Source: Naegleria gruberi (lineage: Eukaryota). From it: DNA of 64,000 nucleotides. The notes under the pieces were generated by a model, which saw only the letters and a list, made by a program, of their open reading frames with translations, did not search any database and was not told the origin of the DNA. Both the position numbers and the translations under genes were made by a program. Where the stretch lies: NCBI GenBank assembly GCA_000004985.1, contig GG738862.1, one strand, 5' to 3'. Below are positions 1,097 through 51,738 of the stretch, piece by piece (within the stretch, counting starts at the first letter, position 1; the number at the start of each line of letters is the position of its first letter).

Positions 1097-3838
1097 NNNN
1101 NNNNNNNNNNNNNNNNNNNNNNNNNNNNNNNNNNNNNNNNNNNNNNNNNNNNNNNNNNNNNNNNNNNNNNNNNNNNNNNNNNNNNNNNNNNNNNNNNNNN
1201 NNNNNNNNNNNNNNNNNNNNNNNNNNNNNNNNNNNNNNNNNNNNNNNNNNNNNNNNNNNNNNNNNNNNNNNNNNNNNNNNNNNNNNNNNNNNNNNNNNNN
1301 NNNNNNNNNNNNNNNNNNNNNNNNNNNNNNNNNNNNNNNNNNNNNNNNNNNNNNNNNNNNNNNNNNNNNNNNNNNNNNNNNNNNNNNNNNNNNNNNNNNN
1401 NNNNNNNNNNNNNNNNNNNNNNNNNNNNNNNNNNNNNNNNNNNNNNNNNNNNNNNNNNNNNNNNNNNNNNNNNNNNNNNNNNNNNNNNNNNNNNNNNNNN
1501 NNNNNNNNNNNNNNNNNNNNNNNNNNNNNNNNNNNNNNNNNNNNNNNNNNNNNNNNNNNNNNNNNNNNNNNNNNNNNNNNNNNNNNNNNNNNNNNNNNNN
1601 NNNNNNNNNNNNNNNNNNNNNNNNNNNNNNNNNNNNNNNNNNNNNNNNNNNNNNNNNNNNNNNNNNNNNNNNNNNNNNNNNNNNNNNNNNNNNNNNNNNN
1701 NNNNNNNNNNNNNNNNNNNNNNNNNNNNNNNNNNNNNNNNNNNNNNNNNNNNNNNNNNNNNNNNNNNNNNNNNNNNNNNNNNNNNNNNNNNNNNNNNNNN
1801 NNNNNNNNNNNNNNNNNNNNNNNNNNNNNNNNNNNNNNNNNNNNNNNNNNNNNNNNNNNNNNNNNNNNNNNNNNNNNNNNNNNNNNNNNNNNNNNNNNNN
1901 NNNNNNNNNNNNNNNNNNNNNNNNNNNNNNNNNNNNNNNNNNNNNNNNNNNNNNNNNNNNNNNNNNNNNNNNNNNNNNNNNNNNNNNNNNNNNNNNNNNN
2001 NNNNNNNNNNNNNNNNNNNNNNNNNNNNNNNNNNNNNNNNNNNNNNNNNNNNNNNNNNNNNNNNNNNNNNNNNNNNNNNNNNNNNNNNNNNNNNNNNNNN
2101 NNNNNNNNNNNNNNNNNNNNNNNNNNNNNNNNNNNNNNNNNNNNNNNNNNNNNNNNNNNNNNNNNNNNNNNNNNNNNNNNNNNNNNNNNNNNNNNNNNNN
2201 NNNNNNNNNNNNNNNNNNNNNNNNNNNNNNNNNNNNNNNNNNNNNNNNNNNNNNNNNNNNNNNNNNNNNNNNNNNNNNNNNNNNNNNNNNNNNNNNNNNN
2301 NNNNNNNNNNNNNNNNNNNNNNNNNNNNNNNNNNNNNNNNNNNNNNNNNNNNNNNNNNNNNNNNNNNNNNNNNNNNNNNNNNNNNNNNNNNNNNNNNNNN
2401 NNNNNNNNNNNNNNNNNNNNNNNNNNNNNNNNNNNNNNNNNNNNNNNNNNNNNNNNNNNNNNNNNNNNNNNNNNNNNNNNNNNNNNNNNNNNNNNNNNNN
2501 NNNNNNNNNNNNNNNNNNNNNNNNNNNNNNNNNNNNNNNNNNNNNNNNNNNNNNNNNNNNNNNNNNNNNNNNNNNNNNNNNNNNNNNNNNNNNNNNNNNN
2601 NNNNNNNNNNNNNNNNNNNNNNNNNNNNNNNNNNNNNNNNNNNNNNNNNNNNNNNNNNNNNNNNNNNNNNNNNNNNNNNNNNNNNNNNNNNNNNNNNNNN
2701 NNNNNNNNNNNNNNNNNNNNNNNNNNNNNNNNNNNNNNNNNNNNNNNNNNNNNNNNNNNNNNNNNNNNNNNNNNNNNNNNNNNNNNNNNNNNNNNNNNNN
2801 NNNNNNNNNNNNNNNNNNNNNNNNNNNNNNNNNNNNNNNNNNNNNNNNNNNNNNNNNNNNNNNNNNNNNNNNNNNNNNNNNNNNNNNNNNNNNNNNNNNN
2901 NNNNNNNNNNNNNNNNNNNNNNNNNNNNNNNNNNNNNNNNNNNNNNNNNNNNNNNNNNNNNNNNNNNNNNNNNNNNNNNNNNNNNNNNNNNNNNNNNNNN
3001 NNNNNNNNNNNNNNNNNNNNNNNNNNNNNNNNNNNNNNNNNNNNNNNNNNNNNNNNNNNNNNNNNNNNNNNNNNNNNNNNNNNNNNNNNNNNNNNNNNNN
3101 NNNNNNNNNNNNNNNNNNNNNNNNNNNNNNNNNNNNNNNNNNNNNNNNNNNNNNNNNNNNNNNNNNNNNNNNNNNNNNNNNNNNNNNNNNNNNNNNNNNN
3201 NNNNNNNNNNNNNNNNNNNNNNNNNNNNNNNNNNNNNNNNNNNNNNNNNNNNNNNNNNNNNNNNNNNNNNNNNNNNNNNNNNNNNNNNNNNNNNNNNNNN
3301 NNNNNNNNNNNNNNNNNNNNNNNNNNNNNNNNNNNNNNNNNNNNNNNNNNNNNNNNNNNNNNNNNNNNNNNNNNNNNNNNNNNNNNNNNNNNNNNNNNNN
3401 NNNNNNNNNNNNNNNNNNNNNNNNNNNNNNNNNNNNNNNNNNNNNNNNNNNNNNNNNNNNNNNNNNNNNNNNNNNNNNNNNNNNNNNNNNNNNNNNNNNN
3501 NNNNNNNNNNNNNNNNNNNNNNNNNNNNNNNNNNNNNNNNNNNNNNNNNNNNNNNNNNNNNNNNNNNNNNNNNNNNNNNNNNNNNNNNNNNNNNNNNNNN
3601 NNNNNNNNNNNNNNNNNNNNNNNNNNNNNNNNNNNNNNNNNNNNNNNNNNNNNNNNNNNNNNNNNNNNNNNNNNNNNNNNNNNNNNNNNNNNNNNNNNNN
3701 NNNNNNNNNNNNNNNNNNNNNNNNNNNNNNNNNNNNNNNNNNNNNNNNNNNNNNNNNNNNNNNNNNNNNNNNNNNNNNNNNNNNNNNNNNNNNNNNNNNN
3801 NNNNNNNNNNNNNNNNNNNNNNNNNNNNNNNNNNNNNN
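1097..3838. other. Assembly gap (2742 N).
   Basis: Run of n characters. The 1012/976/935-aa ORFs spanning it are poly-X artefacts. Confidence 0.99.
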
Positions 3839-4240: not shown

Positions 4241-4557
4241 TTTCTAGACATGATGTTAAGCTTGATGAACAAGTCAAGCTTGTGAAATTTGTATTTTTTT
4301 TTTAAAATTTTCAAAAATATTCACAAGTCTGAAATACGTCACCTCCTCCTTCACTGATTTTCATCATCAAAACAACACAAAACAAACAACAACAAATAAA
4401 CAACACATTACAACATCAAGTAGAACACAACAGAATATCGATAATTAACTTTGGAGTAACTTTATGCAAAATCGTCAGCGATGACGTCAAAAAAAGCGTC
4501 AATCCACCATCAGGAATGACGAAATAAAATGAGCGGGTAAATAATTAACCAAAAAAA

Positions 4558-6165
4558 ATGACTCTACACAAAAGTACTCTTATTCGAAACAATAGTTTAT
4601 TTCCCGATGATATTTGTTTCGAAATTATAGATTACTTTGATTCTCCATTTATCATCAAAACATGTTCTTTAATTTCACATCAATTTTTACGTGTCATAAA
4701 ATTATATTCGAATCTTGTGGTCAATTTCCGAATGATTACTTCAGAACAAATTAATCAATTTTCAAAAAGTCAATTTTTAGGAAATATAAGAAAGGTTAGA
4801 ATAGCAAGTCATCAAATTGAAGGAGAAATAGGTGTTAAATTATTGGAAACTTTATCAGAAATGAAAAATTTAACCTATTTGAATATTGATTGGAATAAAA
4901 TTTCAGAAAAGTCTAAAATTATTCTTTCTGGAATGAAACACTTGAAAATACTTGCTGCTAGCGGATCTGAAATTGATAAATTTAGTCGATTGGATCAATT
5001 GACTGAACTAAATGTCAATTGGAATCGTTTAAAAGATGAAGATGTAGAATCTATTGGAAATTTGAAAAATTTAACTTTATTAGAATTGAGTGGAAATGAA
5101 ATTTCTAAAAATTCAATGAAATTTATTAGTCAGCTCTCAGAATTAACAAAACTTTCTGTGGGATTGAATTCAATTGAAAATGAAGGAATCAATTCAATAA
5201 TCAATCTTTCAAAATTGACTTGTCTAAACATTATTAATGCAAATATTACTTCAGAAGGTGTCAAATTAATTGGAAAACTATCAAACTTAACCATTCTCGA
5301 TATTAGTGGAAATTTAATTGGTGCTGAAGGAGGTCAATACATTGGAGAATTGAAGAATCTCAAAACACTTGTGGCAAGTGATAATGAACTTGGAGTGCTT
5401 GGAGCAAAGAGCATTGGAGAAATGAATCAATTAACTTCACTTTGTTTGATAGGCAATTCTATTGGAAATGAAGGAGCCAAGTATATTTCTCAATTAAGCC
5501 AATTGACTGATCTTGATTTGGGAAAAAATGAAATAGGTGATGAAGGATTTAAACTACTAGCAAAACTTGAAAAGTTGACAAATTTAGATTTGGTTTCTAA
5601 TAACATTTCTGATTTGAGTTCGACTGGTCAATTGGGTTTATTAAACTGCCTTGATGTCAGAAAAAACAAAATAGAGGACAAGGGCATAAGAAATATTTGT
5701 CAATTGAGTGGATTGCAATCACTTCGTCTTTGCGCAAATCCAATCACTTCAGAAGGAGCCAAAATATTATCAGAAATGGTTCAATTGACCAATTTATCAA
5801 TAAGTGAGACCCATATCGATGACGAAGGAGCCAAATTTATAGCACAATTGACAACTCTGAAATATCTTGATATAAGTACTAAAAGAATAACCGCGAATGG
5901 TGTCAAATTTATTTGCCAATTATCGAAACTAATCTCACTCGATATTAATTGGAATAATATTGGAGATGAGGGAGTGTTATATATTAGCAGAATGCAACAA
6001 TTAGAAACACTAAATGCTGTTTATTGTAATATTGGATTGGAAGGCGCAAAACTCTTGAGTGAAATGGAACAATTGACCGTACTTGATGTGAAAATTAACA
6101 GGATACCTGGAGAGGGAATTCAATTATTAGAAAATATTGCACGATTTAAATCATTAGTTGTGTAA
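4558..6165 (+). CDS. F-box-like N-terminus plus about 18 RNI-type leucine-rich repeats (535 aa).
   Basis: N-terminus FPDDICFEIIDYFDSPFIIKTCSLISHQFLRVI is F-box-like. It is followed by repeated units of about 24-28 aa such as LTxLxLxxNxIGxEGAKxIxxLxxL (GNEGAKYISQL, GDEGFKLLAKL, TSEGAKILSEM). The ATG is at 4558 and the stop is TAA. Confidence 0.75.
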   Translation: MTLHKSTLIRNNSLFPDDICFEIIDYFDSPFIIKTCSLISHQFLRVIKLYSNLVVNFRMITSEQINQFSKSQFLGNIRKVRIASHQIEGEIGVKLLETLSEMKNLTYLNIDWNKISEKSKIILSGMKHLKILAASGSEIDKFSRLDQLTELNVNWNRLKDEDVESIGNLKNLTLLELSGNEISKNSMKFISQLSELTKLSVGLNSIENEGINSIINLSKLTCLNIINANITSEGVKLIGKLSNLTILDISGNLIGAEGGQYIGELKNLKTLVASDNELGVLGAKSIGEMNQLTSLCLIGNSIGNEGAKYISQLSQLTDLDLGKNEIGDEGFKLLAKLEKLTNLDLVSNNISDLSSTGQLGLLNCLDVRKNKIEDKGIRNICQLSGLQSLRLCANPITSEGAKILSEMVQLTNLSISETHIDDEGAKFIAQLTTLKYLDISTKRITANGVKFICQLSKLISLDINWNNIGDEGVLYISRMQQLETLNAVYCNIGLEGAKLLSEMEQLTVLDVKINRIPGEGIQLLENIARFKSLVV

Positions 6166-6278: not shown

Positions 6279-7635
6279 TTAGTAGTGATCAACCACTTTC
6301 ATTTTTTTCCTCAGTTCCTTGATTATTCTATCCGAAATATCATCACCAATATAAAGTTTCCTCAAATTGGGCATGTTCAACAAATATTTAGCTCCTTCAT
6401 CTCCAATTTCACAGTGAATGACTGAGAGTTTTTGCAATTGGAGCATTCCACTAATTGCCTCGAGTCCTTTATTTCCAATTTTATTTCCCGAAAGGTTTAG
6501 TTTGGTTAAATTTTTCATTCCACTTAATGATTTTGCTCCCTCAATTCCAATATTACTGTCATAGATACGGAGATTAGTCAATTGATTTAGTTCACTTATT
6601 ATTTTTGCTCCTGAATCTCCAATTTGATTATCACTAATTAAAAGTCTGGTTAATTGATTCAGTTGACCAATTGGTTTGATATCATCGAAACCTAATTTGT
6701 TTGATTGAATATGGAGACAAGTCAATTGTTTCATATTACAGATCGCCTTAATTCCTTCTGTTCTGACATTAGTCCACTGAATGCAAAGTGTTTTTAAGTG
6801 TCTCAATTGACTAACTGAAATTGCACCTCCATCCCCAATTGGATTCTCACTCATGACGAGTTGAGTTAATGTTTGAATTTCACCAATTGCTTTGGCACCT
6901 TCATCCCCAATATTATTTTTACAAATGAATAGTCTTGTCAGTTGAGGAAGTTCACTAATTTCTTTCGCACCTTGATTGCCTAGTTTATTCTTTCGAATAT
7001 CGAGATAGTTTAGTCGTGTCAGATGTTTAAGTGTTTTTGCTCCTTCCTGTCCAATATTATTTTTACGAACACAAAGATGTGTTAATGAAGAATTCAAATT
7101 ACTCAATGCCTTAATACCTTCATCTCCAATTTTGTTTCCACACATTTCAAGTTTCGTCAATTGTTTCATCTTTCCAATAGATTTCATTCCTTCATCTCCA
7201 ATTTCAGTTCCACCAATATCAAGTTTGATTAATTGTTTCAAATTTGTAAAATATTCAGCACCTTTTGAGGTTATTGGATTGTTAAATACATTCAGTTCAG
7301 TAAATTGAGTCATTTCACTAATCAACTTGGCTTCTCATTTCCAATAAAATTATACGAAATTTCGAGTGTTTTCACTTGTTTCATTTTATGAAGAAGCTTA
7401 AACCAATTTTTCCAATCACGTCATAACAATTATCACAATAATTCGCACAAATAGTTCTGCAAGTGATTCTGTCAAACCAATTCCAATTTTGGCATTTGGC
7501 AATTTCGTCCATGTATAAATCCTTGTGAAGGTGAAATGAAAGTTTAAGTCTGTTTCGAATAACATTATACCACCGTTTTGAAACAAGCGCACATTTCATC
7601 AAAATAAATTCCACATTATTCGCAACAAATTTCAA
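6279..7635 (-). CDS. F-box-like/RNI-type LRR protein, probably 2 exons (N-terminal F-box-like exon 7381-7635, LRR exon 6279 to about 7337). The splice junction is not resolved.
   Basis: The 6279..7325 frame has 13 LRR units (IGDEGMKSIGKMKQL, IGDEGAKAIGEIQTL ...) and stays open upstream to a TGA at 7338-7340 with no ATG. The upstream ORF MKFVANNVEFILMKCALVSKRWYNVIRNRL is F-box-like. A candidate 42-nt intron (gtgaaaac...aaatgag) lies between them but the phase does not fit cleanly. Confidence 0.55.
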
Positions 7636-7803
7636 TATTTCATAACATAAATCATCAATTATTTCTAATAATTTTTTCGTTTTCTTTCCAATAATTTTCG
7701 AATAAAACTACCAACCTCCTTGTCTACTGTTGGCTACAACCAAATCTTCATCACGTTCTTCATTCAAATCACGTTCTTGCATTTTTTTCAATGAAAAACG
7801 ACG

Positions 7804-8325
7804 ATGAAAAAAATACCTCAACAAGACCATCCTCCGGATACGGAAGGGAGTAATTTGCTTGCTGACAGGATTTTTGTGTTAGAGAGAGCAATTGAAACCT
7901 ACCAAAAGGAAAACAATAATCTCCGTGACTATCTTCAACAACTTGTAAATATATGTAATGGTCACCCGTTATTGAATAATAATAATAATAATCCCATCAA
8001 ACCTGTAAATAATAATCTGATCAATACCCAACCATCAGAAAATGAAAATCTATTTATTACTAGAAATCCAGTAAATGTTAGAAATCTACCAACTAGTAGA
8101 AATTTAATTAATGGTGGAAATTTCTTGACTGAGACAGTTCAAATATGCGATAGTAATCCTAAAAATAGAACTGTCAGTTATGCTGATATTACAAGATTAG
8201 CTCCTATTAAAGCTCAGCCATCTATTAAGAAAACAATAGCAAAACAAAAATCAACAACTAATAAGATGAAAAGAAATATGGCAACTAATACTAGACCTAA
8301 CAAACGTAAATCGAGAGTATATTAA
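7804..8325 (+). pseudogene. LINE ORF1 (copy A), terminated prematurely by the MITE insertion at 8313.
   Basis: [47 protein letters not shown]... is identical to the first about 170 aa of the 9275.. ORF. It then reads into the MITE (RVY stop). The uninterrupted sequence resumes at 8735. Confidence 0.6.
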
Positions 8326-8726
8326 TATCCAATATCTATCCCAAACCGCTTTTTTTGGATATGGCTTTTTAAAAAGGGCAATCTGGCTAAATTTTTACGG
8401 GCTTGGCTTTTTGGATAAATCTTGGATTGGATAATATTATTTGAAAATGTGTCGTGTTTGAGCAATTGTCAACAAGGAATGCAGGCAAATCACTCTACGA
8501 ATATTTATTAGATTATTATCAATACTAATTGCAATAAATCAACAATTTTTCGATATAAATTTGGAATAATTTATTTTTGAAATAATTCATTTTTTAGTGG
8601 AAATTTCTTGACTTATTTTTGGATTTAGGTTTTGGCTTTTTGGTTCAATTTGGCTTTTTGCCGATTTTTTATTCACCTATATCCAAAAACTGGTTTGGGA
8701 TGGATTTTGGATATTAATATACTCTC
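8313..8726. mobile_element. 414-bp non-autonomous foldback element (MITE) with perfect 20-bp TIRs GAGAGTATATTAATATCCAA and an 8-bp target-site duplication CGTAAATC (8305-8312 and 8727-8734). This is hAT-like TSD length.
   Basis: Copy B of the same LINE has the uninterrupted site ...aacaaacgtaaatc|taattacaatc... at 9770-9790. Copy A reads cgtaaatc|gagagtatattaatatccaata...ttggatattaatatactctc|cgtaaatc|taattacaatc. The interior is AT-rich with internal symmetry (ccaaaccg...ggtttggg, ggctttttgg repeats). Confidence 0.75.
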
Positions 8727-8927
8727 CGTAAATCTAATTACAATCTTAATCAAATAATTAATGTAATTTGCTACAAAGATGTTACTAACGAATTTGTTGA
8801 ACAAATTACAGACCTACTCGGTGACTCTGTAATCATTAGAGTTAATCGATACTGTAATAATATTATTAATGTAATTTGCCCTGATGAAACCAGTTATAAA
8901 GAGTGTTTCAATCAATTAGTGCAAGGA

Positions 8928-8977
8928 NNNNNNNNNNNNNNNNNNNNNNNNNNNNNNNNNNNNNNNNNNNNNNNNNN
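8928..8977. other. Assembly gap (50 N).
   Basis: Run of n characters. Confidence 0.99.
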
Positions 8978-9254
8978 TTTTAGACAACATGTCAACATGT
9001 TCATCTTTGTAAATTCCTAAACATCCTGGTGAAATTCTACCAATATCCGAAACACCAGTGGCTTCTACAATAAATAAACCAGCTCCACCTACAATTCTAC
9101 TGCCAATATGTTGAACATGCCAGAAATTAGCAAATCCATCAACCGATGAGTACTGACACATTGGGGAGACGACAATACGATTCTTTAAAGTCAATCCTCT
9201 AATTTTGAATGGTTGAAAGAGTGGAGGAACGGATGAGATATCTTGTGCTGACAT
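8978..9254 (-). CDS. N-terminal fragment of an NADH:flavin oxidoreductase of the old-yellow-enzyme family (YqjM-like class). It is truncated by the gap and its ATG abuts the LINE 5' end.
   Basis: [92 protein letters not shown] matches the conserved OYE/YqjM N-terminal beta-alpha barrel start ([26 protein letters not shown]...GGAGLIIVEATAVxPxGRISPxDLGIW.DEH). Confidence 0.6.
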
Positions 9255-9274
9255 TTTTTTAATGGTTGTCGACG

Positions 9275-10247
9275 ATGAAAAAAATACCTCAACAAGACCA
9301 TCCTCCGGATACGGAAGGGAGTAATTTGCTTGCTGACAGGATTTTTGTGTTAGAGAGAGCAATTGAAACCTACCAAAAGGAAAACAATAATCTCCGTGAC
9401 TATCTTCAACAACTTGTAAATATATGTAATGGTCACCCGTTATTGAATAATAATAATAATAATCCCATCAAACCTGTAAATAATAATCTGATCAATACCC
9501 AACCATCAGAAAATGAAAATCTATTTATTACTAGAAATCCAGTAAATGTTAGAAATCTACCAACTAGTAGAAATTTAATTAATGGTGGAAATTTCTTGAC
9601 TGAGACAGTTCAAATATGCGATAGTAATCCTAAAAATAGAACTGTCAGTTATGCTGATATTACAAGATTAGCTCCTATTAAAGCTCAGCCATCTATTAAG
9701 AAAACAATAGCAAAACAAAAATCAACAACTAATAAGATGAAAAGAAATATGGCAACTAATACTAGACCTAACAAACGTAAATCTAATTACAATCTTAATC
9801 AAATAATTAATGTAATTTGCTACAAAGATGTTACTAACGAATTTGTTGAACAAATTACAGACCTACTCGGTGACTCTGTAATCATTAGAGTTAATCGATA
9901 CTGTAATAATATTATTAATGTAATTTGCCCTGATGAAACCAGTTATAAAGAGTGTTTCAATCAATTAGTGCAAGGAAGTCATGGAGGAAAATTCATATTA
10001 GAATGCTTTCCATCTCCAGCAATCTTTAATCCTAAACCTTTAGCACTTTCACATACTACTTCCAGTAAAACTACTCACCTTAAAATGCTAGAAAATATTA
10101 TTAGCAAATGTATATTGGAAGATAATATTTCTGTTGAGGAACTCTACACTAACTATTCTCATAACCAATTTATAATTAGAATATCATTTGAGGATCAAAC
10201 TATTTGCTCTCAAATGGCACAAAATCTTGGTTTAAATCAATATAAAA
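9275..10247 (+). CDS. LINE ORF1 (copy B): N-terminal coiled-coil, poly-N, then an about 150-aa C-terminal domain. It runs into the 50-N gap.
   Basis: [47 protein letters not shown] (heptad-like) ... [63 protein letters not shown]... The architecture resembles L1-type ORF1p (coiled coil plus nucleic-acid-binding domain). This is an inference. Confidence 0.45.
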
Positions 10248-10297
10248 NNNNNNNNNNNNNNNNNNNNNNNNNNNNNNNNNNNNNNNNNNNNNNNNNN
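10248..10297. other. Assembly gap (50 N).
   Basis: Run of n characters. Confidence 0.99.
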
Positions 10298-10571
10298 TGG
10301 CCGTAATAACATTTTAAGGTAATAGAAACTTGAGTATGATGAGTAATACTATGAATATATATTGTATTTCCTTTAGAATCTAGTAATTTGGTTACCTTGG
10401 TAAGTCAAGTGTTGTATATTTTCGCTTTATTAGTTGTAAATGACTTTGAGAATAAATATATATATATATTTCAAATATCATCATTTAACTACTTTCAGCT
10501 TTTATTGTTAAAAACATAAATAAATTTCCGGTGTTTATTACAACTAGGTAAAACTGAAACGGTACTACTAA

Positions 10572-13500
10572 GATAACGTAAATGGTTTATATAAGCACGC
10601 AAGCCATAAATCAGTTACTCCTGAATTGAAATCCATGTGTTTAACACATGGAATTCACTTTATGAGTTTAACTGAAACTCACTTAAATACCCCAGAACTA
10701 GAAATAGAAGTCAAAAACTCTGGATCAGGGTACCTATTATTTAACTCATTAATGAATACAAGAAAAGGTTGCAAAGGTACTGCAGCTATGCACTTTCTAA
10801 ATAATTATAGAAAGCGCAATATTACAAATAATAATCTCGTACCTGGAACATTACAATGGACACGATTCGAAAGTCGTGGAATTCCAATTAACATCTTCAC
10901 AATTTATCTTAGTGGAAGATCTAATGATTATGACAATGAGGAAGAAGCTCTTAATAGCTTTATTAATGCTGCCCTCACAATTAAAGATGAACATATTATT
11001 TTAAGTGGTGATATTAATATTGATACAAGAAATCCCACTAGTAAAAGAGAAAAAGACTGGCTATGGATACTTAATCTACTCAGACTAACCGAATTACAAA
11101 CATCCAATAATACTTGGATAAGAAGAGTTCAATCTAATATTTTTGAATCGAAACCTGATCATGTCTTTGTGTCAAAAGACATAAGAATAGTTAAAGAAGT
11201 GCTCATGCCTCCATTAACCACTAATGATCACATTCCTTTCTATATAGATCTCGAATTTAAATCTAACTTAACCTAGAGACCTTACTTTAGTAAGAGTAAG
11301 AGAAAGAAAATATATGAAGAAATTAATAAGTCTCCTATAGATAATTTCAAAGAGTTAAATCAAGCTATCTTGACTCAAATTAACAAATATGGCTCCAAAA
11401 CTGATAGATTAGGTGTTGGTCGAATCTCAACAGCCTATAAAGAAGAAATTCAAGATTTGGAAGAAGAAATTCTTCACAAATTAAATAATGAAACTATTTC
11501 TCAATCAGAAATATCTGAATTACAAACATTACTGAAAGAAACTCATATTAAAAATGGAAAACATATTAAGGAAAAATTGATAGAAGAATTCAATGATAGA
11601 ACTTCATCTAAAATGTATCAATTTGATAGAATGGTTCATTCCAAAGAAATTAAATGGAAAGATATTAATTTCGAAGAAGAGGAAATTTTAGAATACTTTA
11701 CAAATAAGTTTACCTCGACTAATCAACTTCCAACATTCATTCCAAGTAGATCAACTATTAAAGAAGGACCAAATTGGACCAACTCGATCCATATAGAAGA
11801 ATTGGAAAAAGCTTTAAAACGTATGAAATCAAATACCCCTGGTCCTGATCTAATTTCTCTGGATATTATTAAGCATCTCACAGAAAAAAATCAGAAAATT
11901 TTATTGAACGAATTTAATAATTGCCTAAGAATAGGTGATATCTCTGAAGATTGGAAGCAAGGATGGGTGAAACTCATTCCTAAAAGAGATATCACTTCTC
12001 TCAGTGACATTCGTCCAATCACTATTTTACCTACATTTTATAGAATTTTATTTAATATTATAGCCTTTCGACTTAGATCTTGGGCATCATCTCATATAAA
12101 TATGAGACAACAAGCATTTATTACAGACAGAAACACTTTAAATCATGGTGTCCTTCTATCATCATTAGCTATGAAAACTAAGAAAAGAACCTTCATTCTT
12201 GTTAACCTAGATATTGAAGGAGCTTATGATGCTGTAGAATTGTCAGTGATTAAAATGGCACTAGACCATTGTAAATTTCCTAACGAACTCACTCAATTTA
12301 TTATTAATGCCTATAGCAACCATGAATTGAGCCTAGAAATTGATAATCATCTATCCACAAAATTTACAAAAACTCGAGGAATCCCACAAGGATGCCCATT
12401 GGCTCCTCTTATATACGATTGTATCACACAATTAATTATTGATAAAGCAATAGATAAATGGAAAATACCAATCAAACCAAACAAACTATGTGCTAATGAT
12501 ATTGCACTCTGTTGCTTTGCAGATGATATGAATGTTGTCTGTGACAGATATGCCAAATACAATGACAGGCTAGATAACATACATGACTGGCTAGGTCAAC
12601 TACTTTTTAAACTAAATGCAAAGAAATCAGTTGCAACTCTACTACCTAAAACAAGCAAAGTATCTCCCAAAATTAAGGGTACACCTATTCCTAAACAAAA
12701 AAACCTTAGGATACTTGGACATTATCCATGGGATGATATTCTGGTTCGACAAGATATCCAAAACAAAATTGAAAAATTTACCAAATCTTTGAAATTTCTC
12801 CCATTATTCAAAATTGAACCAGATAACCTTAAACAAATTATTCACGCTAAAGCTATTAGCTTATTTACACACCTTTCTAAAATTAACTTAATTCCTCTGA
12901 AAAAGGCACAACAAATTGATATAGCCATTAGAGGAGCAATTAGAAGAAAACTATATATGGACAGGAAAACACCAACCAGCTTATTCCACTTACCATTAGA
13001 AAAAGGTGGATTAGGACTACCATCTATTGTAGAATTTTCTGAAAGAATGAACCTAAGAACCATGACCTTAATTGCTAACAGTAACAATTTACTCGTCAAG
13101 AAAGCTTTCAAACATGGTATCAAGCACTGTGAGGAAACGAAAGACAATATTTATTCGAAATGGCTACTAGTACTAAAAGAATACAACCTCACACTTAAGA
13201 AAAATGAAATGAAATTCAAGTTGAAAAAAATCAAAACAGGAAATAATTTTGATATTCACACTGACGGATCAAGACTCGAATCAAAGACTGGAATGGGGAT
13301 TAATATCTATGATTGCTCCAATATGAACACTCCAGTTAGATCTTTATCCCTCCATATTAATGATCAATATTCAAATAATGTAGCTGAAATATGCTCTATT
13401 ATTACAGCAGCTAAAGTTATCCCAAGAGACTCCAAGATTAAAATCCATACTGATAGTAATGTGGCAATTTAAGTTCTCAAAGAACGATATAAGGGAAACT

Positions 13501-14222
13501 TTCTACCACTAAAAAAAGCCTTCTTTAAAACCATTAAGGATAGAAAACTTGAATATGAATTCAAGAAAGTTGAAGCTCATAAGGATAAGGAAAATATCAA
13601 AGTTGATTTATTGGCAAAGAATGCAACTCTGAAACCTAAAATCTTTGATATCCGTAAACTACTCTTTAATCAATATATCCTCACAAAGAACGATATTATA
13701 ATCTTTGACTATAAGAGGTTAACTACCTCACAACATTTAAGGCTAATGCTTGACAAGATAGAGAGTCACCCCAATCACATACCTAACCTAGATTGGAACT
13801 CTATCAACGTCAGCTACCTTAAATCCCATTTGTCTCCTAAATCTAAATATTATATTTGGAGAAACTCTTCAAATGCCCACATCAATTTTGGTGAGGGTAA
13901 AAGTTTCTGTCATGATTGTAACACAGAATCTGACCTTAATCACTATATTCATGAATGCCCTGCTCTGGATAGTGCCAGATACTTTTGCTTGTCAAAAATA
14001 TCTGATATTCTTGATCAGAGAGAGTGTAAACTCACTCATATTCAATTCAGACCAGAAAAGCATCACCATGTACTCTTCTTCCACCATTCTGGAACCACAT
14101 TCTTCGAAGATGGATACGTACAACAATACCCAGACATTGCAGAGAAATGGCCTGAGATCCAGGGAGCCATTTCTAACTTTGTCGGCCGCTCCTATAGATA
14201 TTATTATATTGACTCAATGTAA
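10572..14222 (+). pseudogene. LINE ORF2 of about 1200 codons in a single reading frame, interrupted by only two in-frame stops (TAG 11274-11276, TAA 13470-13472). It contains an APE-type endonuclease (10572-11276), reverse transcriptase (11370 to about 13150), RNase H (about 13200-13620) and a C-terminal CX2C...HX4C motif.
   Basis: EN: DNVNGLYK...LTETHL...SGDINID...TNDH. RT: FRLRSWASSHINMRQQAFITDRNTLNHG...IALCCFADDMNVVCD (YXDD/FADD box). RNH: IHTDGSRLE...DSKIKIHTDSNVAI / VLKERYKGNF...EAHKDKENIKVDLLAKNA. C-terminus: CHDCNTESDLNHYIHECPALD. ORFs 10626, 11370 and 13611 all start at positions that are 0 mod 3. Confidence 0.7.
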
Positions 14223-14460
14223 ATTTACAAATTCAAAGAGAATCTGAATAGATTCGTTATTATTGCAATAAAAGATTTTTTTCAATGAAAAATTACACAA
14301 TAAATCAATTCTTCATTACTGTCAATATTGAACAAAACCCCAATTTATATAAATTTAATCTTGATCTCAATGATGTTTACAATGAACAACCTTGTTCCAA
14401 TTCCATTTCAAAATTGAAAAAAAACAGAAAACATAAACTTTAAAAAAAAAACTCTTAAAA

Positions 14461-14946
14461 ATGTCCCTCTGCAAAGACAATTGTGGTTTCTACGGCAATG
14501 ACAATTACGAAGGTTATTGTTCAACATGCTATCGAAAGAGAAATGCAAAACCAGGTGATGATCAATCATCGTTATCGGTAATTAATTCTACTCCAGTTTA
14601 TACTCCACCAATGCCATCTTTCTCCTCCGATGAGGAATTGGCTGTTTTTATCAAATTGATCAGTAATATGCCAGAGATAACTTCTGGAAAGATTGATAAT
14701 GTGTTGCAGACTTTGAATGTTTATTTCACTGAGAAGCAGGCAAGAGAATTGTTGACTGCTATTGGAAAGGTCACCTTGGATGGAAATAATTTCATTTATC
14801 ATCATGCTGTGTATTGTAGAGTGGTGGATCGTTATAATTTACAAGAATGTTTTGGAGCTGAAGGATATTATTATGTTGCACGAGGAAAGAAACCTCAAGA
14901 TGATTACAAAGTATGGGATCATCAACATTCATTCTTGAAACATTAA
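14461..14946 (+). CDS. A20-type zinc-finger protein (161 aa).
   Basis: N-terminus MSLCKDNCGFYGNDNYEGYCSTCYRK matches the A20 zinc-finger pattern CxxGCGFYGxxxxxGxCSxCY. The rest is unrecognised. Confidence 0.6.
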   Translation: MSLCKDNCGFYGNDNYEGYCSTCYRKRNAKPGDDQSSLSVINSTPVYTPPMPSFSSDEELAVFIKLISNMPEITSGKIDNVLQTLNVYFTEKQARELLTAIGKVTLDGNNFIYHHAVYCRVVDRYNLQECFGAEGYYYVARGKKPQDDYKVWDHQHSFLKH

Positions 14947-49859: not shown

Positions 49860-50090
49860 TTTATTTCTTCTAATATTAAGGGGAGGCTCACACAACAAAC
49901 AAGTTAGGGGTTATAGTTAAGCTCCCTAAAACCACATTCTTGGAATCGATATCGGAGATGTGTAAATCTTGTCAAACTATCATCACTATTTCTGTTATTG
50001 TAATACACTGTTCAAAAATGTATTCAGTAGTCATTGATTTTCCTCTTTGACCAAAATTCAACACAAAATTCATATGGCTCGCCACGTTTA

Positions 50091-50161
50091 CCGTCTCGGG
50101 AGGAATCGAACCTCCGTCAATGGATTCAAAGTCCACTATGCTACCATTACACCACGAGACG
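50091..50161 (-). tRNA. tRNA-Gln (anticodon TTG), 71 nt, no intron.
   Basis: Minus strand: CGTCTCG TG GTGTAATGGTAGCAT AGTGGA CTTTGAA TCCAT TGAC GGAGG TTCGATT CCTCC CGAGACG G. The acceptor stem is a perfect 7 bp, the T-arm is GGAGG/CCTCC with a TTCGATT loop, and the layout is near-identical to eukaryotic tRNA-Gln. Confidence 0.8.
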
Positions 50162-51738
50162 AGCACATAGACGCTAAAATTCTTGTGTTGATATAACGCT
50201 ACCATTACGTCTGTTTTTTAATTGTTGCTGGAATCAGTTTCAATGACATTCAACCCTGTTGTAAAGTTAGGTCAATAAATATTGAATGCAAAGTTATAAC
50301 AAGGATTGGTCACATGATTGAACATCAGTTTCGAATTTTCTTTCAACTCGTTGTATACAACAGTTGTTTTAATAGAAGAATATTCTATCATATCCAAAAA
50401 GTTTAGTTTCCTTCCGAATGCATCAAAAAATACCAAATCCGGAGATTCTATTACTAAAAGTAAAATTTAGTAATTTGAATTTCAAAGTTGGTGCAAAAGT
50501 TCTGAAAATCAAGTACAGTTCCCTAATCGTTGAACACTGCATCAAAATTACCTCTATTGTAAATTGTCAACCCTTTCCTGCAAATATATCAACATTGTTT
50601 AGGTTGTCTTTGATTGAAATTTTACTCCCATTCACCAAAACAATATTTTTCATTCATTGGAATGCTCTTCCTTTTCAGTTTACAAATCATCCAAACTCTC
50701 TGCTTTCAATTTGAATATTAAATCATGAAATTTGTCAATTATTAATAACTTGAAGTCTATTGAAATGCAATTCACATGAATTACCTAACAAGTTGAATTG
50801 GTAATCAGACCTGCCATGTGTTGATGGAGATAACGAGGTCTGTGTTTCTCAATATCGACATCCAAAAATTCATCTTTTCAACGTTCATAATCAACACATT
50901 CATATGAATCATAACGAATCTTTCAACATGCATCAATGAAATCCACAATTTCACTTATTTAAATATTTGAAACTTAGTTGGCATTCTGCATTCTCTTTGA
51001 ACATTAAGTGGCGTTCATGGTTTTTCAAATCCACAAACGGAAAGGAAATCTATATTCCGGTTTATCGATAAACACCAAAACACTCTTCTTGTCTCATGTG
51101 TCAGCTATTGATTTTGGTACGATCACCGCTTTATTTACATGTTCCTTCTCATGTCAACTAGAAATGTCTTTATTGATACTTTCTACAGAGCAATAATTTT
51201 GAGAGAATCTTTGTAAGAGCACAATTGAGGCCATCATGTTGACTCTTATTGGACAATCTAAACTGAAATGGTTAGTTTGATAGCTTGTTTGTGATGTGAT
51301 GCATTTTCTCTTGTGAATCACAGAGAGGAGCGAGTTGTTATTATGGTCCAAAAACGCAAAACCACAGTCCAAATGAATAAAAGCCATGAACAATGCGACT
51401 TGTTACCTCAAAACAAATCAAAACAAATAACATCACACCCTGAAGCGAGTGCTAACAACGAACAGCCTTGTTTTCCGAAGCCTTTGAAAACTTATTCTCC
51501 CCAACACCCAATAATTGCTACAGGCTGATCCATCCTAAGATAAATTCTATTAGGTGTTATCACTCTACCAATTAATTCAATCTACCCTTTTAATTTATTA
51601 TCCACTTTATCGCGAGACGTCTCTCTTACACACACAAGTCCAAAGCCTTGATTGCGAGATACCAACCAACAACACCCAACCAACCTACACAACCGAATTT
51701 CCTCATCATCCAAAACAATATATTCACTAACAAAGAAA

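Follow-up and report, generated by a model that had tools for sequence, protein, structure and literature searches.

LINEs (long interspersed nuclear elements) such as the I factor, Tad1, LOA, R1 and ingi/L1Tc arrange the domains of their second open reading frame (ORF2) in the order endonuclease, reverse transcriptase (RT), RNase H and C-terminal Cys/His motif. A different kind of specialization is seen in TRE5/TRE3 of Dictyostelium and SLACS/CZAR of trypanosomatids, which are target-specific LINEs of compact protist genomes. Here we describe a LINE in a 64,000-nucleotide stretch of contig GG738862.1 (assembly GCA_000004985.1) of Naegleria gruberi strain NEG-M, hereafter the window, in which an earlier note had reported a nearly intact element at 9255-14452. 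We consider it likely that the window holds a single young, Naegleria-specific LINE insertion, now defective, at 7799-14274, and that the apparent 9255-14452 element is a composite produced by the scaffold.

The Naegleria element shares its domain order with the RNase H-bearing LINEs that use an AP-type endonuclease (APE), its endonuclease matches Exo_endo_phos_2, and its RNase H lies downstream of the RT as in I/Tad1/R1/ingi-type elements. The missing poly(A) tail is a further likeness, shared with I, R1 and other 'stringent' LINEs. It differs from the RNase H-bearing elements in forming its own branch with 100% bootstrap support, which joins them in 33% of bootstraps in a rough neighbour-joining (NJ) tree without curated references. 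With L1 (human L1 ORF2p; PDB 8c8j, 8sxt) it has in common the APE, the RT and a CCHC-type motif, an organization in two ORFs, the first of them with a predicted N-terminal helix, and apparently target-primed insertion with 14-18-bp duplications and 5' truncation. Unlike L1, however, the Naegleria element has RNase H and shows neither a poly(A) tail nor a target of the TTTT/AA type; its target, which reads as a T-run on the element strand and as an A-run on the strand that is nicked, is the mirror image of the L1 TTTT/AA site. In further contrast to L1, its ORF1 has no Transposase_22 match and, among matches to solved structures, the similarity of its RT to human L1 ORF2p (E 1e-14) is comparable to, and no better than, that to R2 proteins (E 1e-17).

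Like TRE5/TRE3 and SLACS/CZAR, the Naegleria element occupies non-random sites beside genes in a gene-dense genome. Its target is nevertheless a short (C)AT6-9 motif and not a gene class, it lies at or near RNA polymerase II start codons and not at tRNA or spliced-leader genes, and no safe-haven logic is evident.

Boundaries of the resident insertion

The features that bear on the limits of the element are the following.

7781-7798, plus strand: left target-site duplication ATTTTTTTCAATGAAAAA, 18 bp, directly after CAT
8928-8977: scaffold gap of 50 N, just upstream of the reported 9255-14452 interval
8978-9254, minus strand: N-terminal ~93 codons of an Old Yellow Enzyme-type gene, start codon at 9252-9254
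9253-9269, plus strand: flank ATTTTTTTAATGGTTGT of a second LINE 5' end (copy B), presumed left target-site duplication
10248-10297: scaffold gap of 50 N inside the reported interval, between ORF1 and ORF2
14223-14274, plus strand: 3' untranslated region (UTR), 52 nt, ending ...GCAATAAAAG, without poly(A)
14275-14292, plus strand: right target-site duplication ATTTTTTTCAATGAAAAA, 52 nt past the ORF2 stop

The 18-mer ATTTTTTTCAATGAAAAA occurs exactly twice in the 64 kb, where about 0.25 matches are expected even allowing two mismatches. Because this perfect 18-bp duplication abuts both ends, we place the resident insertion at 7799-14274. We further note that 7780-8312 and 8727-8927 together repeat 9252-9976, which reveals a second LINE 5' end. 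We refer to the 5' end at 7799, that of the resident element, as copy A and to the one at 9270 as copy B. Over the 706 element bases that they share (8727-8927 included) the two do not differ at all; their flanks do. Since the flank ATTTTTTTAATGGTTGT is not that of copy A, copy B is an independent insertion.

Copy B lies on a 1.27-kb contig between the two 50-N gaps (8978-10247) that carries the start of the Old Yellow Enzyme gene along with the LINE 5' end. The tblastn match to Old Yellow Enzyme covers 9221-8979 only, and the remainder of the gene is absent from the window. The pairing of the duplications and this gene content suggest that contig 8978-10247 probably comes from another locus and was wrongly placed in the scaffold. 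Both boundaries of the earlier note shift: its 5' boundary, 9255, belongs to the 8978-10247 contig and is the flank of a different copy, and its 3' boundary, 14452, overshoots the end of the element at 14274 by 178 bp, into intergenic DNA.

These observations are consistent with the following course of events. Target-primed reverse transcription would have inserted the element once the bottom strand had been nicked at an A-run; the site, 5'-A7T/G, is in this case the context in which the start codon of a divergent F-box/LRR gene lies. The draft scaffold would have broken within the repeat, and the scaffolder would have placed a 1.27-kb contig from another locus into the gap. That contig, which carries the Old Yellow Enzyme gene together with another, identical LINE 5' end, would then give rise to the apparent 9255-14452 element.

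ORF2 domains and in-frame stops

The ORF2 region comprises the following features.

10569-10571, plus strand: in-frame stop TAA, the third, at the position of the ORF2 N-terminus
10572-11273, plus strand: AP-type endonuclease domain (Pfam, alignment)
11274-11276, plus strand: TAG nonsense codon, replacing Trp (TGG)
11976-12722, plus strand: reverse transcriptase core, RVT_1, FADD motif (Pfam, alignment)
13251-13620, plus strand: RNase H domain, residues D, E, D, H and D kept, broken by the TAA at 13470-13472
13470-13472, plus strand: TAA nonsense codon within the RNase H domain
13908-13958, plus strand: C-terminal zinc-knuckle-like motif CX2CX7HX4C, read from the translation

In the translation of 10299-14222, the ORF2 frame extends from 10572 to the terminal TAA at 14220-14222 without a frameshift and is colinear with seven aligned homologues, including the intact proteins P0001 (1213 aa) and P0010 (1227 aa). 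Pfam identifies Exo_endo_phos_2 (E 8.9e-6), RVT_1 (E 1.6e-28) and RNase_H (E 3.3e-6), the last also annotated (PF00075, precomputed) in the homologues P0109 and P0111; a Pfam search with the C-terminal 249 aa gave no match. All of the endonuclease motifs are found (N-V-N-G-L, L-T-E-T-H, S-G-D-I-N, P-D-H and N-D-H), and alignment with the homologues indicates that the catalytic residues of the endonuclease, the RT (FADD) and the RNase H are kept. As in other LINEs, an AP-type endonuclease and an RT are thus found in one ORF. The earlier note had described a non-LTR retrotransposon with an APE-RT-RNaseH-Cys ORF2 in a single frame free of frameshifts; Pfam, the alignment and the CX2CX7HX4C motif bear out the domains, and the colinearity of 10572-14222 with P0001 bears out the frame.

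The same cannot be said of its statement that the element is interrupted only by two stops. A third one, the TAA at 10569-10571, stands two codons ahead of the endonuclease N-x-N-G-L motif, with more stops upstream, and the window reads R-Y-Y-stop-D-N-V-N-G-L at the ORF2 start, without an ATG. In the homologues ORF2 begins 3-9 residues before N-x-N-G-L (P0001 starts MACYNINGL), and the ATG is missing from the window at the very site where P0001, P0002 and P0010 start. ORF1 is moreover split by a miniature inverted-repeat transposable element (MITE), described below.

Comparison with relatives bears directly on the origin of the stops. P0109 (NAEGRDRAFT_82331), an N. gruberi protein encoded on a separate 7.8-kb scaffold and recovered by searching with the endonuclease and RNase H/C-terminal segments, differs from the window translation at one position only out of 391 (390 identical), with Glu (GAA) in place of the TAA at 13470. 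The residue at this site is likewise Glu in P0006 and in P0111, whose copy, from a Logan assembly, is 90% identical, and Gln in P0001. This TAA is private to the window copy. At the TAG position, all seven covering homologues (P0001, P0002, P0006, P0008, P0009, P0010 and P0110) have Trp, which points to a single TGG-to-TAG change in the window copy. Given the Glu of P0109 at the TAA and the Trp of seven out of seven homologues at the TAG, read-through or recoding is not supported. Among the options that had been offered for the stops, this favours a very recently inactivated copy (or sequencing error); translation through them is refuted for the TAA by the GAA of P0109 and finds no support for the TAG. 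The stops are either private point mutations or base-call errors. A ciliate-type genetic code was rejected, as the standard code leaves neighbouring ORFs open for up to 1619 codons.

ORF1 and the ORF1/ORF2 junction

Upstream of ORF2 the window contains parts of both copies.

7799-8312, plus strand: copy A 5' end, with a 5-nt leader CGACG, the ORF1 start (ATG at 7804) and ORF1 as far as the MITE
8313-8726: MITE-like insertion, 414 bp, splitting copy A ORF1
8727-8927, plus strand: copy A ORF1, continued until the scaffold gap
9270-10247, plus strand: copy B 5' part, with leader and ORF1 codons 1-324 (ATG at 9275), ended by the gap
10298-10568, plus strand: non-coding stretch, 271 bp, with stops in all six frames

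The MITE-like insertion has 69-nt imperfect terminal inverted repeats and is bordered by an 8-bp duplication, CGTAAATC, at 8305-8312 and 8727-8734, a length that suggests an origin of the hAT type. No further copies of it were found in the window or in the retrieved related loci.

ORF1 has been described as a coiled-coil protein with a C-terminal domain of about 150 aa. A long N-terminal helix is predicted in copy B ORF1, and homology to ORF1 of the related locus L001 begins at about codon 170. The description is incomplete: the L001 ORF1 has at least 523 codons, its alignment with the window ORF1 covers just the first 320, and a third or more of ORF1, at its C-terminus, is missing from the assembly, as is the junction of ORF1 with ORF2. 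A search for ORF1 homologues returned nothing, and Pfam gave no match, Transposase_22 included, for ORF1 of the window, L001 or L002. A single-sequence AlphaFold2 model of ORF1 reached a predicted local distance difference test (pLDDT) score of 34 and is unusable.

In the relatives the ORF1 stop lies 0-20 nt before the ORF2 start, and in L001 and L004 it stands 20 nt before the ATG or overlaps it. The window has instead the 271-bp stretch at 10298-10568, for which neither the remaining window nor the eight related loci gave a significant match and whose inverted repeats are AT-rich palindromes only. Because of the MITE, the missing ATG and this stretch, the window copy is defective whatever the nature of its stops. 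It does not have the uninterrupted ORF1 and ORF2, each with a start codon, of an intact, autonomous element, and the description 'nearly intact' fails on several counts: two copies are mixed across gaps, a MITE sits in ORF1, a third stop is present, ORF2 has no ATG and the 271-bp stretch intervenes.

Alternative explanations

Could the stops be sequencing or assembly errors in a Sanger draft, with an intact and active element beneath them? The near-identity to other copies (390/391 codons with P0109, 706/706 bases with copy B) fits such an account, as does the situation of a collapsed or broken repeat beside contig ends, where consensus quality is lowest. We nonetheless regard it as unlikely, since errors of this kind leave in place the 414-bp MITE, with its own target duplication, in ORF1 of the very copy assigned by the 18-bp duplication, the missing ORF2 ATG, and the 271 non-coding bp that replace the tight ORF1/ORF2 junction of L001 and L004. 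It is extremely improbable that the stops are functional throughout the family by read-through or recoding. The absence of a frameshift is the sole point in favour of this idea, whereas the P0109 copy of this genome reads GAA where the window has the TAA (Glu also in P0111 and P0006, Gln in P0001), every covering homologue has Trp at the TAG site, and neighbouring ORFs read with the standard code are long (949, 978 and 1619 codons among them). A correct scaffold order, with 9270-14274 as one element and 7799-8927 as a separate 5' fragment or tandem partial copy, would agree with the contig order chosen by the scaffolder and with the shared orientation of copy B. We judge this arrangement very unlikely, because the 18-bp duplication pairs 7781-7798, and not the flank 9253-9269, with 14275-14292, and because a truncated Old Yellow Enzyme gene whose remainder is absent from the window would then sit inside the element.

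A single defective insertion at 7799-14274 overlain by a scaffolding error is the reading that we prefer, and some points weigh against it. It does not account for 10298-10568, and it infers the misplacement of contig 8978-10247 from duplication pairing and gene content. The privacy of the TAG and of the TAA at 10569 rests on comparison between families and not on sister copies. Three nonsense codons also exceed the neutral-decay expectation for a nearly undiverged copy; possible reasons are mistakes in base calling or assembly, or a master element that was already defective and was mobilised in trans. On balance, the window holds a LINE copy that was inserted recently, is now defective and looks more complete in the draft than it is; it is ordinary but for the tendency of its family to insert at T-runs beside start codons. 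Its main value is as a warning that what looks 'nearly intact' on a draft scaffold may combine two copies across gaps, and its stops are no evidence of recoding.

Relatives and phylogenetic placement

Homologues of the element are limited to Naegleria and to environmental/Logan contigs, at 38-56% identity, and identity outside Naegleria is at most about 29%. They include P0003, P0008 and P0012 of N. fowleri and P0009 and P0113 of N. lovaniensis. N. gruberi itself has at least two further subfamilies, one represented by P0006 and P0007 (about 77% identical) and the other by P0110 (about 55%). These three N. gruberi models, on other scaffolds, are missing the whole RT core, and P0006 and P0007, although on different scaffolds, have the same junction, ...QGW followed directly by KAQEIDRAIRG..., a pattern explained either by an internally deleted derivative that was amplified or by an artefact of gene prediction. 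The related loci L003, L006 and L008 are 5'-truncated, as is typical of LINEs. Together with the target-site duplication and the absence of terminal repeats, these truncated copies match what is expected of a LINE.

The NJ tree introduced above was built from 299 RT-core columns of 36 sequences, with one clade-named reference (R1). Naegleria monophyly is recovered in 100% of bootstraps, an L1/Tx1-like (zf-RVT) cluster without Naegleria in 97%, and the sampled RNase H-bearing cluster, which includes the R1-named protein, in 87%. By replicate, this rough tree places Naegleria with the RNase H-bearing cluster in 33%, with the L1-like cluster in 7% and outside both in 60%. The Naegleria RT does not group with the L1 clade in this rough test without curated references. 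The family therefore looks like a separate Naegleria lineage, as far as RT sequences can indicate. The presence of RNase H had been taken to place the element outside L1 and in a Tad/I/plant-L1-like group; the first part agrees with its position outside the L1/Tx1-like cluster (sister in only 7%), while the affinity to Tad, I or plant L1 is unsupported at 33%. Literature searches returned no description of this Naegleria LINE family.

The transposable element content of the genome has been reported as only ~0.28% (bioRxiv 10.64898/2026.06.24.734286). Signs of very recent activity are the identity of two copies over 706 bp, the sister copy with an open RNase H and C-terminal frame, and the 90%-identical copy in a related strain or species. 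The family is a young, distinct Naegleria lineage with an interesting target preference.

Insertion sites and 3' ends

The readable duplications and junctions are listed here by copy.

Copy A: duplication ATTTTTTTCAATGAAAAA
Copy B: 5' flank ATTTTTTTAATGGTTGT
L001: 3' junction, (A)T6-9 start
L002: duplication ATTTTTTTTTGATATTA at 2371-2387 and 7983-7999
L003: 3' junction, (A)T6-9 start
L004: 5' junction at 3548-3557, (A)T6-9 start
L005: duplication TTTTTTTGTTCTATT at about 3175-3196 and 7605-7630
L006: duplication ATTTTTTAGTGCTAAAT at about 3657-3673 and 5238-5254
L007: duplication starting ATTTTTTC at about 4365-4385 and 9610-9635
L008: 5' junction at 5654-5672, (A)T6-9 start

Target-site duplications of the relatives L002, L005, L006 and L007 are 14-18 bp long, and all readable duplications and junctions start with (A)T6-9. 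AT6 sites occur in the window at 5.4e-4 per position, and the T-run junctions are therefore not due to chance. In five out of eight readable 5' flanks, the T-run is preceded by the CAT of a divergent gene's start codon. Two of these cases are in the window, at the F-box/LRR ORF (copy A) and the Old Yellow Enzyme gene (copy B), and three are in relatives at annotated starts: a TELO2-like gene (L002, N. fowleri), a 1923-aa gene (L004) and TERT (L008, N. lovaniensis). Runs of at least seven A in the window are directly followed by TG in 18 of 52 cases, mostly at the start of long ORFs. As about a third of such runs precede TG, a plain preference for A-runs explains much of the start-codon pattern; the excess is marginal (5/8 versus ~25-35% of such window sites, P ~0.04, binomial estimate). 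In N. gruberi, A7-9 typically stands before the start codon.

The 3' ends adjoin the duplication directly (...AATAAAAG in N. gruberi, ...CTAATTAG in N. fowleri L002 and ...ATATTTTTAC(A) in N. lovaniensis L005), and no copy that was read has a poly(A) tail. A 20-nt block of the 3' UTR, GAGAATCTGAATAGATTCGT at 14238-14257, is identical in L001 (5237-5256) and L006 (~5200-5220), in elements whose ORF2 proteins are just 56% identical; the copies of N. fowleri and N. lovaniensis, whose 3' UTRs have 4-11 nt, lack it. The block could pair into a 6-bp hairpin, but this is no stabler than shuffled sequence (z 0.30), and we claim no structure for it.

We tentatively raise the possibility, doubtful at present, that this is a poly(A)-less lineage whose endonuclease or priming selects 5'-A6-9T/G on the nicked strand and which thereby lands antisense exactly at host start codons. 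The bottom strand would be nicked at A(n)T/G, and an RNA 3' end without polyadenylation, which might derive from read-through and carry U-runs, would serve for priming. If so, the 5' end of the element could supply promoter activity to the displaced gene, or insertions could persist on one haplotype only. A real T-run/start-codon target would also offer a simple system for the study of LINE site choice in a very compact genome and would show the fate of genes separated from their promoters.

Neighbouring genes and sequence context

The window is AT-rich (GC ~33%) and gene-dense, and two of its ORFs are exact matches to the N. gruberi proteins EFC45520.1 and EFC45641.1. It contains three runs of N (1097-3838, 8928-8977 and 10248-10297), the first of which, 2742 bp long, is a large assembly gap near the window start. 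An Rfam scan of 7700-14600 gave no match. A single tRNA-Gln (TTG) gene is located at 50090-50162 on the minus strand and has no association with the LINE.

On the 3' side of the element a zf-A20 gene lies at 14461, and the 3' flank is the former intergenic region between it and the F-box/LRR gene, which lies on the other side.

6279-7782, minus strand: F-box/LRR gene, putative start codon CAT at 7780-7782, adjoining the LINE insertion

This gene has an open frame only if the reading frame is changed two or more times between 7300 and 7450. This could reflect a pseudogene, which the insertion may have inactivated, or poor sequence quality in this part. An intact paralogue of the F-box/LRR gene is present at 4558-6165.

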